Shown: positions 19,512-19,790 of the stretch, piece by piece
Position numbering within the stretch: the first letter of the stretch is position 1
Layout of the letters: each line of letters starts with the position of its first letter
Sequence record: PQ287653.1
Direction: 5' to 3' (one strand)
From: Pseudomonas phage HHBS10_2
DNA length: 50,031 nt
Made by a program: the position numbers and the translations under genes
Notes under the pieces: generated by a model
What the model was told of the DNA's origin: nothing
The model's input: only the letters and a program-made list of their open reading frames with translations
The model's database searches: none

Positions 19512-19745
19512 TTAGCATTTATAAGTGATTGTTTGTGCAGGCAATTGCATGACTTTGCTCAATTCCTTATAAGTAGGTGATACTTTAACCTCTGGGGTTA
19601 CTTTATTGAAGACAGTCTGAAGATGTTGTTCAATTACCTCCATAGTCTCTTGTGTAGCACCTAATCTATGATCTATAGTTCTCTTAAGTTCAAAGTACCC
19701 TTGCAACCAATAGCAAAACTGTTCGGGTGTCATATTAACCTCCAA
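19512..19745 (-). CDS. hypothetical protein (77 aa)
   Basis: preceded on the - strand by the conserved TAGAAAAATTTTTGGAGG element and ATG. Confidence 0.45.
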   Translation of the reverse strand: MEVNMTPEQFCYWLQGYFELKRTIDHRLGATQETMEVIEQHLQTVFNKVTPEVKVSPTYKELSKVMQLPAQTITYKC

Positions 19746-19790
19746 AAATTTTTCTAGCAGAAATTCACGTCATTGAGCATTGCATTATCC
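19739..19790 (-). promoter_or_regulatory. conserved intergenic motif copy A (module 1 ATAATGCAATGCTCAATGAC plus module 2 CTAGAAAAATTTTTGGAGG)
   Basis: one of three near-identical - strand copies (19739, 39736, 43805); module 2 alone is found twice on the + strand near 47.25 kb. Confidence 0.55.

Follow-up and report, generated by a model that had tools for sequence, protein, structure and literature searches.

Introduction

The gap behind the RNR-alpha gene of Pseudomonas phage HHBS10_2 (PQ287653.1) holds a sequence of about 50 nucleotides that recurs elsewhere in the genome, always on the same strand. The question is whether such a repeat starts transcription, starts translation, marks an RNA or serves the DNA itself. 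The whole stretch analysed here, referred to as the window, has 50,031 nucleotides and represents the complete genome of a PA11-like Pseudomonas aeruginosa podophage (Zobellviridae, Paundecimvirus). A first-pass annotation had proposed a phage-specific promoter combined with a translation-initiation element, present in three minus-strand copies. Zobellviridae are common marine podophages and include therapeutic candidates against P. aeruginosa (PA11, O4, TC6, K4). To our knowledge, their transcription programme has not been studied, and no description of promoters, sigma factor or motif was found in the papers searched on PA11-like phages.

Copies of the motif and their surroundings

All three minus-strand copies were found where they had been reported. 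They form a family of about 55 nt (19738-19792, 39735-39789 and 43805-43859), and no other direct-repeat family in the window ranks higher. The sequence TAGAAAAATTTTTGGAGG occurs exactly at 19756-19739 and 39753-39736 and with 3 mismatches at 43823-43806; these 3 matches compare with 0.14 expected, and none of 100 shuffles reached 3. Similarly, GAATAATGCAATGGNCAATGGCTG is repeated exactly at 39787-39764 and 43857-43834 (expected 0.00). The window additionally contains a diverged complete copy (site E) and two tandem half-copies (site 0) that the annotation had not listed (Table 1). The repeats, of which each genome has only 4-6 copies, read as a conserved, reiterated and strand-specific intergenic regulatory element before gene blocks, the 3' part of which is a strong SD.

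Table 1. Positions of the motif copies and of neighbouring features in the window
Feature	Position	Strand	Details
Site 1, full copy	19736..19792	-	box 1 GCAATGC 19783-19777; TAGAAA 19756-19751; SD GGAGG 19743-19739
Site 2, full copy	39733..39790	-	box 1 GCAATGG 39780-39774; TAGAAA 39753-39748; SD 39740-39736
Site 3, full copy	43803..43860	-	box 1 GCAATGG 43850-43844; TAGAAA 43823-43818; SD GAGGG 43810-43806
Site E, diverged GP100-like complete copy	46191..46235	-	ATGCGATGC-N20-TAGAAAATAATTTGCT; profile match E 4e-4
Site 0, two tandem half-copies	47243..47315	-	38-nt period; GGAATTTCTGCTAGAAA(A)TTTT; downstream block only
Bidirectional intrinsic terminator	19474..19492	.	prediction and PA11 record annotation
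73-aa accessory gene	19512..19733	-	between site 1 and terminator; only in the window and TC6; PHROG matches
Phage ECF-type sigma factor gene	31210..31710	-	Pfam Sigma70_r2 E 1.4e-14; TIGR02937 full length E 6e-16
Terminator-like hairpin with T-run	43902..43925	-	9-bp stem, tail TATTTTTATT; about 45 nt upstream of site 3
Sigma70-type early promoter	46143..46170	-	TTGACA-16-TAATAT with upstream TG; directly downstream of site E

Site 1 follows the stop codon of RNR-alpha, where a long minus-strand operon has its 3' end. It is kept in all relatives, and in most of them it directly adjoins the bidirectional terminator, which separates the convergent early/middle (minus) and late (plus) operons, with no gene between. 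The 73-aa gene found there in the window is flanked by a direct repeat, AATTTTTGG, at 19750-19742 and 19510-19502. Site 2 precedes a type-II glutamine amidotransferase gene (38416-39729, TTG start), and site 3 precedes a small gene (43490-43798). The start of the latter gene is called inconsistently between records. An early transcription unit may end at the hairpin upstream of site 3.

Site E has no RBS or gene after it. A sigma70-type promoter belonging to a cluster of TTGACA promoters (45.7-47.0 kb) starts 30 nt downstream. The site is found in 8 of 11 genus members, and GP100 has the same tandem arrangement at 893-972. Site 0 is placed in a divergent intergenic region, with a hairpin (GGCCCACTTTTTAGTGGG) before it and a C-rich tract after it. 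Its tandem pair is also seen in FBPa8, other relatives that carry the element have a single copy, and Salinivibrio phage CW02 (41249-41330, L135) contains a homologous region.

Architecture of the motif

Read 5' to 3', the consensus consists of a stop codon, gGAatGc, N19-20, AATTTtTgcTAGAAAAT and TTTTGGAGG. Box 1 takes the form G-G/C-A/G-ATG-C/G, with the stop codon 0-6 nt ahead of it, and the conserved block AATTTtTgc-TAGAAAAT follows 19-20 nt further downstream, a spacing that is constant across genera. The distance from TAGAAAAT to the SD is nearly fixed (3-8 nt), and conservation continues unbroken into the SD. As had been noticed, the TAA stop of the upstream gene lies inside the motif in two copies (RNR-alpha, 19787-19785; a 163-aa ORF, 39784-39782). 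The start codons are ATG at 19733, TTG at 39729 and ATG at 43798, with an observed gap of 5-7 nt from the SD, narrower than the 5-9 nt first given.

In about two-thirds of the copies the core is followed by TTTTGGAGG, 5-7 nt and a start codon. Of 30 distinct copies, about 10 are followed by neither an RBS nor a gene; what comes next is a suppressor tRNA, a sigma70-type promoter, a terminator or else the genome-end region. The proposed translation-initiation element thus holds for the SD in the 3' part, an add-on, and not for the core, which is not a translation signal because about one-third of its copies lack an RBS or gene after them.

The tandem CAATGG repeat described for the first module is perfect in copies 2 and 3, but copy 1 deviates (GGATAATGCAATGCTCAATGACGTG). 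As a functional core it was rejected: its second unit varies in the genus (AAATG, TAATG, CTTTG) and is absent from other genera, and the repeat is a peculiarity of this genus. When the boxes of the window and GP100 were aligned, GGAATGC was paired with the first CAATGG unit of the window and not with ATAATG; on this alignment the two phages no longer seem to differ by 6 nt in the spacing of their boxes. A mini-ORF beginning at the ATG of the motif was likewise discarded, as it stops after 6 codons in copy 1 and its sequence is not conserved as coding.

Conservation in the genus and in distant relatives

Conservation in related genomes, one of the points by which the first-pass annotation would have its proposal judged, is evident both across the genus and in distant relatives. 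All three copies stand at the same sites in 10 of 10 sequenced genus members, and their architecture is fixed though the flanking genes differ. A homologous motif is the top repeat family both in GP100, whose sigma factor is 45% identical, and in an oyster-metagenome Zobellviridae phage; many IMG/VR contigs found via the sigma gene carry it as well. A profile search of about 1 Mb gave 33 matches at E<0.5, about 10 of which had not been used to build the profile, and all 33 lie on the strand that carries the early genes and the sigma gene. No copies were found on the late (structural) strand or upstream of late genes.

Gene contexts are also shared between distant phages. The motif precedes the orthologue of the site 2 gene in GP100 (L133 8717-8759), L141 and L182, and that of the site 3 gene in GP100 (L133 5541-5586). 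In GP100, TAGAAA is followed at a distance of 8 nt by a tRNA with anticodon TTA, and in L155 a terminator stands directly behind the copy at 19672. Box 1 is missing at site 0 and in the CW02 copy. VpV262 has neither the sigma gene nor the motif, a weak look-alike there being not significant (E 6.6). Short-pattern scans of IMG/VR returned mostly chance matches; there the composite motif was confined to PA11 and O4 entries, one known sigma-encoding contig and one 5-kb contig. Alteromonas phage H4/4 was dismissed as a relative, since it belongs to Autographiviridae.

A candidate middle-type promoter fused to an RBS

The explanation that we favour, with about an even chance of being correct, is that the motif is a non-sigma70 phage promoter of the 'delayed-early/middle' type, usually fused to a consensus RBS. 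What the sequences show is its conservation, architecture, strand bias and contexts, together with the lack of any sigma70 match or RNA fold; that transcription begins here, at which position and through which factor, is what we infer. Box 1, which closely follows the stop codon of the gene before it, would offer the upstream (-35-like) contact, while the block AATTTtTgc-TAGAAAAT would provide the -10-like element and the initiation region, with transcripts starting a few nt past TAGAAA. Copies with TTTTGGAGG and a start codon would be self-contained expression cassettes with a short A/U-rich leader and a near-perfect SD. In gene-less copies the same core would drive or precede a suppressor tRNA, a tandem sigma70 promoter, or only a terminator or genome-end region. 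T7 has the orphan promoters phiOL and phiOR, to which copies of the last kind, themselves orphans, may be compared. The reader would be host core RNA polymerase redirected by a phage factor, and the phage ECF-type sigma is the obvious candidate.

Known promoter classes describe the motif poorly. Sigma70 promoters have a TTGACA-like -35 and a TATAAT-like -10 (A at position 2, T at position 6) 16-18 nt apart. A consensus scan detected no such site at 19.73-19.80, 39.73-39.79 or 43.80-43.86 kb, and the same scan does find the classical promoters 46846-46818 and 46170-46143; TAGAAA is without the T at position 6 (-7). In the window and T2S2, TTGACA/TATAAT promoters are concentrated where the early region begins, and GP100 has one strong example. 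Neither in the window nor in GP100 does any of them coincide with the motif, and a single weak 9/12 match overlaps a copy in T2S2. Like site E, the GP100-893 copy has a sigma70 promoter after it.

In ECF (group 4) promoters, a -35 GGAAC/T in which AAC is conserved is separated by 16-17 nt from a short -10 of the CGT/GTC type. The motif has conserved ATGC instead of AAC and no conserved CGT/GTC 16-17 nt downstream; its box 1 reads GGAATGC (GP100) or GCAATGG (window), and its partner TAGAAA is 19-20 nt away. Readings of the boxes as sigma54, extended -10 or AlgU-type promoters were rejected on their spacings. A virion RNA polymerase was also discarded as reader, the large (1554-aa) virion protein having been assigned to the T7 gp16-like internal virion proteins (PMC4819975).

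Several observations speak against a promoter. The 19-20 nt spacing exceeds that of sigma70 (16-18), typical ECF (16-17) and phage 7-11 (16) promoters. If TAGAAA is the -10, the start would fall almost on the SD and the leader would be unusually short. Both the nearly invariant gap between TAGAAAAT and the SD and the conservation that extends through the SD are more suggestive of a constraint on RNA or translation. Where an orphan copy would fire into a terminator, as at site 1 in most relatives, no product is obvious. Furthermore, box 1 is missing at site 0 and in CW02, the late genes have no motif, and co-occurrence with the sigma gene is loose.

A broader version of the promoter hypothesis, which we consider improbable, would regard TAGAAAAT as a family-wide master signal for a phage-redirected RNA polymerase, by analogy with T7 phiOL/phiOR. 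In a lineage without its own RNA polymerase, transcription would thereby be linked with replication or concatemer processing through the gene-less copies that lie at the convergent terminator and next to the terminal repeat. The ECF-type sigma would possibly be the reader, with an unusually long spacer of 19-20 nt, and leaders of middle genes would begin almost at the SD.

The phage sigma factor as a possible reader

The sigma factor gene that the annotation had located is genuine and of ECF type, as Pfam, TIGR02937 and its best PDB matches, which are ECF sigma factors, agree. The pattern of the motif is conserved, reiterated and strand-specific, as expected of the phage-specific promoter whose hallmark had been claimed. 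That the phage ECF-type sigma reads the motif is plausible, and we put it forward tentatively. Distant relatives with the same bipartite signal encode a homologous ECF-type sigma, and the motif is present in 6 of 6 contigs whose sigma is at least 43% identical and in 5 of 21 more distant ones. The link is not tight, since a profile match occurs in 11 of the 27 sigma-encoding contigs having at least 8 kb upstream, and three sigma-encoding contigs that were checked closely have no comparable repeat within 10 kb of the sigma gene. Additionally, the late (structural) strand, from which the motif is absent, is where a phage sigma is usually needed.

Among the closest known systems are two podophages, of which 7-11 offers a precedent for the promoter reading. 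The sigma factor gp47 of Salmonella phage 7-11 has the promoter GTAAtg-N16-aCTA with starts 6-9 nt downstream, and gp36 of coliphage phiEco32 has tAATGTAtA; the 7-11 promoters are all late, and phiEco32 has middle ones as well as late ones (PMC8948821). Like both, the window is a podophage genome with its own small sigma in the replication or middle region and with short elements reiterated before gene blocks, distinct from clustered sigma70-type early promoters. Box 1 (GGAATG/GCAATG) and the CTA of gcTAGAAA resemble GTAATG and aCTA of 7-11, but the spacer is 19-20 nt and not 16, with 19 nt across genera in the GGAATG ... CTA comparison, and the downstream block is much longer (AATTTtTgcTAGAAAAT plus SD). 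Compared with phiEco32, TAATGCAAT of the window shares 6 of 9 bases with tAATGTAtA; the stretch is unconserved in GP100, T2S2 and metagenomic copies, and TAATG in other genera. The motif fits neither consensus. Unlike those of 7-11 and phiEco32, it stands before early/middle genes and before no late ones. A tblastn search (E<=1e-3) with the phage sigma found no similarity in the 7-11 or phiEco32 records.

RNA-level and operator alternatives

A serious rival, though an unlikely one in our estimate, is an element acting at the RNA level: the block (AAUUUUUGCUAGAAAAUAUUUUGGAGG) would then serve in the 5' leader as an operator or enhancer, or else be a site where an endonuclease processes the transcript. 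On polycistronic mRNA it would work through an RNA-binding protein (a RegA-like repressor, S1 or Hfq) or through cleavage, which would free downstream cistrons and trim the operon 3' end. The unbroken conservation into the SD and the short, near-fixed distance to it suit such an element, as does the orientation of every copy with transcription. The pre-terminator copy at the operon 3' end, seen in PA11-like phages and in the distant L155, fits a processing or 3'-end signal better than a promoter, and the copy just upstream of a tRNA is compatible with processing. Moreover, the element is single-stranded and rich in A/U, and GA|AUU is in keeping with the known preference of RNase E. However, no conserved secondary structure or Rfam family accompanies it, and an upstream box held at 19-20 nt while the spacer sequence varies freely is what DNA recognition typically shows. 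Because site 0 and the CW02 copy are upstream of known early promoters, they may be untranscribed on the motif strand. In its pure form as a translation enhancer, the idea also fails to explain the one-third of copies without a gene behind.

Structure searches gave little for RNA-based models. Rfam 15 covariance models matched no motif copy, the only match in the window being the tRNA at 42674-42753. Folding of the three copies yielded minimum free energies no better than shuffles (z +0.25, +0.39 and -1.09) and no shared RNA structure. The stable, conserved hairpin of about 20 bp of a T7-type RNase III site is lacking. A nut site has a boxA (CGCTCTTTAACAA-like) followed by a boxB hairpin; GP100-type copies show a loose TGATTAAC/TCTTTAAC resemblance with no hairpin after it, so that a nut-type antitermination site is not supported.

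The motif might otherwise be an operator comparable to a MotA box, bound by a phage activator or repressor that is not a polymerase specificity factor; we rate this as rather improbable. Box 1 and/or the quasi-palindromic TTTnCTAGnAAA core would be bound, and read-through or a weak host promoter modulated. The bipartite architecture with fixed spacing would be expected of an operator. The core is partly palindromic around CTAG, with a perfect TTTCTAGAAA in L155, but the palindrome is weak at sites 2 and 3. Between box 1 (AATGCT) and the MotA box of T4, (a/t)(a/t)TGCTT, there is a resemblance; however, no HTH or MotA-like domain was found in the early proteins of the window, and there is no sigma70-type -10 with the conserved T at -7. 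K4 and T2S2 do have a gene annotated 'DNA binding protein' immediately upstream of a motif copy, but these genes are unconserved in the genus, and the K4 gene is absent from the window.

The promoter favoured above may also be compared with T4 middle promoters, which combine a MotA box at -30 with a sigma70 -10 element, 11-13 nt apart, and whose orphan members serve as replication origins. In both cases a second class follows sigma70 early promoters, a TGC(T)-containing box takes the place of the -35, and tandem arrangements with early promoters are frequent (cf. site E and GP100-893). The motif differs in that the distance from box to -10 would be 19-20 nt and in TAGAAA without T at -7, and neither a MotA nor an AsiA homologue was detected. 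With T7 promoters it shares a contiguous conserved block of about 25 nt reiterated along one strand, and with phiOL/phiOR the existence of gene-less copies near a genome or operon end. Unlike T7, this phage has no single-subunit RNA polymerase gene, and no RNase III-type hairpin is associated with the motif.

Recombination junctions and genome ends

Many junctions between close relatives coincide exactly with the motif edges, which raises the possibility that the repeats are mainly recombination 'linkers' or insertion/homing targets for gain, loss and exchange of cassettes, with regulation secondary. Three different genes follow GAGGG at site 3, and an extra Cys-rich ORF follows the GGAGG of site 2 in O4, K4, IME180 and FBPa8. 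In PSA11 and DMTU_1, GGAT|AATG is interrupted by an inserted HNH endonuclease gene, in IME180 a 25-codon ORF divides the motif, and at site 1 the 73-aa gene sits between its AATTTTTGG repeats. O4 diverges right after site 0, close to an annotated endonuclease gene (gp01). FBPa8 and PPAT have a chimeric site 2, whose 5' half is of the site-2/3 type and whose 3' half is of the site-1 type. In total, 7 of 83 breakpoint clusters fall within 1.6% of the region (P 4e-4).

Breakpoints nevertheless number 15 per kb in motif zones against 10 per kb in other intergenic gaps and 2 per kb in coding sequence. Most of the association therefore reflects tolerance of insertions between genes, the excess being only about 1.5-fold over other gaps, and the hot-spot hypothesis was rejected: the enrichment is significant against the whole region, but it does not clearly exceed that of other intergenic DNA. 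Sequence, spacing and strand are conserved across genera with unrelated flanks, which requires a function of their own. A primary role as linkers is very unlikely. A group I intron model for the capsid-gene insertion was also dropped, there being no Rfam match.

The likeness to PeSL elements of T4-type phages, which join a strong sigma70-like early promoter to a terminator stem-loop (PMC2839356, PMC4122927), is similarly partial. Both are short, conserved, repeated intergenic cassettes bordering small accessory ORFs, and many indel or replacement junctions of close relatives sit at the edges of motif copies, with signs of inter-copy exchange. Unlike PeSL, the motif has no sigma70 match or conserved stem-loop, occurs in only 4-6 copies and shows a small breakpoint excess.

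The slightest chance is given to a replication or packaging DNA signal near the genome ends, represented by the downstream block, with intragenic copies secondary. Site 0 and the adjacent C-rich tract are conserved in CW02, and site 0 lies 45-86 nt from the record start in TC6, O4 and IME180, starts that may not be physical ends. A weak look-alike in VpV262 (TTAGAAATATTCGAGG) stops 6 nt short of the 138-bp terminal repeat annotated there, but that match falls short of significance, as given above. Such a signal also fails to explain the gene-preceding copies with RBS and fixed upstream box.

Significance

The motif is most likely a known kind of element that was found described nowhere for Zobellviridae phages. 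Extending from Pseudomonas phages to oyster and sea-water metagenomes, it would offer a handle on the step after host-sigma70 early transcription, and it is a promoter candidate for a phage ECF-type sigma. With signal and RBS in 55 nt, it could be a compact, portable expression cassette. If the element acts on RNA, it would represent a new phage post-transcriptional operator. Genome annotation would also gain, as the motif helps to place the gene starts at site 3, and copies before a tRNA or terminator would mark non-coding functions.

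Genome layout and the motif family

The window is the complete genome of a podophage of Pseudomonas aeruginosa from the PA11/O4/TC6 group (Zobellviridae, genus Paundecimvirus), with about 44% G+C and about 92% identity to O4 across 25 kb. The plus strand encodes the structural genes, from 47.5 kb across the record ends to 19.5 kb; the minus strand encodes the early genes and those for nucleotide metabolism and replication, between about 47 kb and 19.5 kb. The largest direct-repeat family is a 55-nt motif, for which the first-pass annotation had reported three minus-strand copies (sites 1 to 3); all were confirmed. 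The repeat is non-random: the 18-mer TAGAAAAATTTTTGGAGG has two exact matches and one with three mismatches (3 against 0.14 expected, with no shuffle giving three), and the 24-mer of its upstream module has two exact matches (0.00 expected). As described there, upstream stop codons, those of RNR-alpha and of a 163-aa ORF, lie within the motif. The start codons come 5–7 nt after the Shine-Dalgarno (SD) element. Other details required revision. Copy 1 departs from the supposedly shared upstream pattern (GGATAATGCAATGCTCAATGACGTG); the stretch GAATAATG is mostly a stop-codon-rich 5' edge, and the true upstream box (box 1) is the first unit of the tandem CAATGG repeat, the second being limited to the genus.

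The family also extends beyond three copies. Site E, a diverged complete copy found in 8 of 11 genus members, lies within a long early intergenic region with neither a ribosome-binding site (RBS) nor a gene downstream, and a strong sigma70-type promoter (TTGACA-16-TAATAT) starts 30 nt after it. Site 0 consists of two half-copies between a hairpin and a C-rich tract. The late strand carries no copy. In the window and in T2S2, classical TTGACA/TATAAT promoters are grouped where the early region begins, and GP100 has a single strong site; these promoters are separate from the motif, except that one T2S2 copy is overlapped by a weak 9-of-12 scan match. A T-run and terminator-like hairpin stand 45 nt upstream of site 3. 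An ARAGORN scan of the window returned no tRNA, including the one called by Rfam (Table).

Table. Features associated with the motif in the window and in related sequences
Feature	Location	Strand	Remarks
Site 1	19736-19792	-
Site 2	39733-39790	-
Site 3	43803-43860	-
Site E	46235-46191	-	ATGCGATGC-N20-TAGAAAATAATTTGCT
Site 0	47315-47243	-	Tandem half-copies GGAATTTCTGCTAGAAA(A)TTTT, 38-nt period; divergent intergenic region
Half-motif and C-rich tract	47243-47180; CW02 (L135) 41260-41340	- (window)	ATGCACCTAATGAACCCCCTCCCCTAACCCCC; common to PA11-like phages and Salinivibrio phage CW02
About 5 TTGACA-containing sigma70-type promoters	45661-46947	-	Two non-coding stretches (634 and 497 nt) heading the early region
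163-aa ORF, PHROG 3483 (function unknown)	39782-40273	-	Just upstream of site 2
tRNA	42674-42753	-	Rfam call, 44.5 bits; tRNA-Arg annotated there in relatives
TA-rich tracts	3633-3758 (+); 44357-44491 (-); CW02 (L135) 33876-34038; GP100 (L133) 42793-43103		(TA)n and TATAAT-like runs after a hairpin; upstream of scaffold/capsid genes
Putative ochre-suppressor tRNA, anticodon TTA	GP100 (L133) 2034-2106	+	Starts 8 nt after the TAGAAA of a copy
HNH endonuclease gene	L006 28476-28922; L005 43186-43632		PSA11 and DMTU_1; between RNR-alpha and motif, inserted at GGAT/AATG
25-codon Cys-rich ORF	L004 21470-21555		IME180; splits the motif

Conservation and consensus

Conservation in related genomes was borne out: the composite motif stands at the same three sites in all ten genus relatives, with the fixed architecture ATAATGCAATG-N21-TAGAAAAATTTT, and profile matches occur in other genera as well. 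Exact-pattern scans of IMG/VR retrieved it from PA11 and O4 entries only, and relatives of the phage sigma protein proved a more informative route. The gene at 31210-31710, previously noted as a sigma factor gene, is indeed full-length and of ECF type. In Pseudomonas phage GP100, whose sigma is 45% identical, the leading repeat family is GGAATGC-N19-TAGAAA-N8-GGAG, with six copies in the early region; one precedes the orthologue of the amidotransferase gene (as at site 2), another that of 43490-43798 (as at site 3), and the copy GP100-893, just upstream of a sigma70 promoter, is the counterpart of site E. Three copies with window-like spacing, for example TTATGAGATGG-N20-TAGAAAATATTTTGGAGG, are present in a Zobellviridae phage from an oyster metagenome, whose sigma is 39.5% identical.

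These copies were used to build a profile, which was run against about 1 Mb, comprising the window, GP100, T2S2, CW02, VpV262 and 51 sigma-containing IMG/VR loci. At E<0.5 it gave 33 matches from 17 sources, every one on the same strand as the early genes and the sigma gene; about ten came from outside the profile-building set. Thirty distinct copies give the consensus stop codon (0-6 nt) gGAatGc - N19/20 - TAGAAAAT - (a)TTT(t)GG.G, in which the last 9 nt of the spacer read AATTTtTgc; information content is moderate at box 1 and high between AATTT and the SD.

Contexts of the copies and RNA-level readings

The proposed translation-initiation element holds in part, as an SD and start codon follow about 20 of the 30 copies. 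The other ten or so precede a tRNA (GP100), a sigma70 promoter (site E and GP100-893), a convergent bidirectional terminator (site 1 in most relatives, and the distant contig L155, in the order RNR-alpha, small ORF, TTTCTAGAAAATATTTTGGA, terminator) or, in the divergent region, a C-rich tract (site 0, with a homologous arrangement in CW02). A translation-only function is thus excluded for the core. A conserved ORF starting at the motif ATG was ruled out, since copy 1 meets a stop after six codons.

An RNA-level operator or processing site is a less likely but serious alternative. Conservation running unbroken into the SD, the fixed distance from TAGAAAAT to the SD and a conserved copy at an operon 3' end would suit it, but the upstream box is distant, some copies lie upstream of known promoters and no structure was found: Rfam holds no family matching the motif, and the three copies fold no better than shuffled sequences (z +0.25, +0.39 and -1.09). 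The partial palindrome of the core around CTAG would fit an operator for a separate DNA-binding regulator, which is considered improbable.

The motif as a candidate promoter and its possible link to the phage sigma factor

Judged from sequence, the motif may well be a class-specific promoter of the phage. This reading draws on two boxes at a fixed distance whose intervening sequence varies freely, strict co-orientation with genes, a position immediately after the stop codon of the gene before, repetition in the early/middle region after the host-type promoter cluster, and conservation across hosts alongside a phage-encoded sigma. The RBS add-on would turn most copies into complete expression cassettes. 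Among promoters defined by experiment, the nearest counterpart is that of the sigma factor from Salmonella phage 7-11, GTAAtg-N16-aCTA, where transcription starts 6-9 nt downstream (PMC8948821); the equivalent here is GGAATG-N19-CTA. With that geometry, transcripts are predicted to start in AT(A/T)TT just ahead of the SD, and 4-7 nt before the GP100 tRNA. A literature search on PA11-like phages and their relatives yielded no account of the motif, nor of promoters of any sort; elements of this kind are well known in general.

That the phage sigma itself reads the motif is a more tentative proposal, because the 19-20 nt spacer falls outside all known sigma classes, late genes lack the motif and, of the 27 sigma-encoding contigs that extend 8 kb or more upstream, just 11 give profile matches. 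By sigma identity, all six contigs at 43% or above carry the motif and 5 of 21 below do. Three sigma-encoding contigs that were inspected contained no comparable repeat, and VpV262, a single genome, has neither sigma gene nor motif. The scaffold gene is preceded by a very TA-rich tract instead of the motif, at a position conserved in CW02 and GP100, and such tracts, which are separate from the motif, may form a late-promoter region. On the T4 pattern, the motif could represent a 'middle' and the tracts a 'late' class, with the sigma serving either.

Compared with O4 and TC6, the major capsid gene (4518-5571, +) apparently contains an interruption of about 0.9 kb: its start (ATGCAACTTACTTCT...) reaches a stop after about 16 codons, and the frame resumes before 5572-6354. 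ORF 4648-5433 encodes a homing endonuclease of the LAGLIDADG type (PF00961, E 1e-8). The interruption looks like an intron or homing-endonuclease insertion, but Rfam found no group I or group II intron at 4518-5571.

Mosaicism at the motif sites

Motif flanks differ among relatives, and at site 3 the SD precedes three different genes. Some relatives carry homing-endonuclease genes or mini-ORFs whose insertion points coincide exactly with motif edges; in O4 (L001, near position 68-590) divergence begins right after a half-motif, beside the annotated endonuclease gene gp01. The 73-aa gene after site 1, flanked by the direct repeat AATTTTTGG, occurs only in the window and TC6, and in other relatives TTTTTGG/CAAAAGAAAAG leads directly into the bidirectional terminator. 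At site 2, O4, K4, IME180 and FBPa8 have an additional Cys-rich ORF. The 163-aa ORF, which shares 93-97% DNA identity with genes from temperate siphophages of Pseudomonas (JBD44, JBD88b, YMC11/02/R656 and others), is missing from FBPa8 and PPAT, which marks it as a recently exchanged accessory gene; site 2 of these two phages is a chimera with a 3' half of site-1 type, which demonstrates exchange among copies. Motif zones make up 1.6% of the region but hold 7 of 83 breakpoint clusters (P 4e-4). Their breakpoint density is only about 1.5 times that of other intergenic gaps, so the junctions appear mainly a consequence of an insertion-tolerant location, and a primary role in recombination is very improbable.

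A primary role at genome ends is likewise very improbable. The half-motif and C-rich tract stand at the very beginning of the TC6, O4 and IME180 records, and VpV262 (L309 45853-45874) has a weakly similar sequence that stops 6 nt short of its annotated 138-bp terminal repeat; the element may thus be linked to genome ends. It is also improbable that gene-less copies, at a terminator and beside a genome end, couple transcription to replication or packaging in this phage without its own polymerase.

Gene-level observations

RNR-beta, one 969-nt gene in O4 and TC6, is split in the window into two ORFs that lie 83 nt apart (22181-22849 and 22933-23256, -), and an extra 234-aa ORF (21473-22177) lies between RNR-alpha and RNR-beta. 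Translation of the Ntn-type amidotransferase (38416-39729, -) has to begin with the codon that precedes Cys (MCGLVG). PA11 and the window have TTG at this position, and PPAT has ATG. In O4 (L001 41720-41760) and IME180 (L004 41060-41090) the codon is apparently ATC, downstream of an inserted Cys-rich 63-aa ORF; the O4 annotation has a truncated gene instead.
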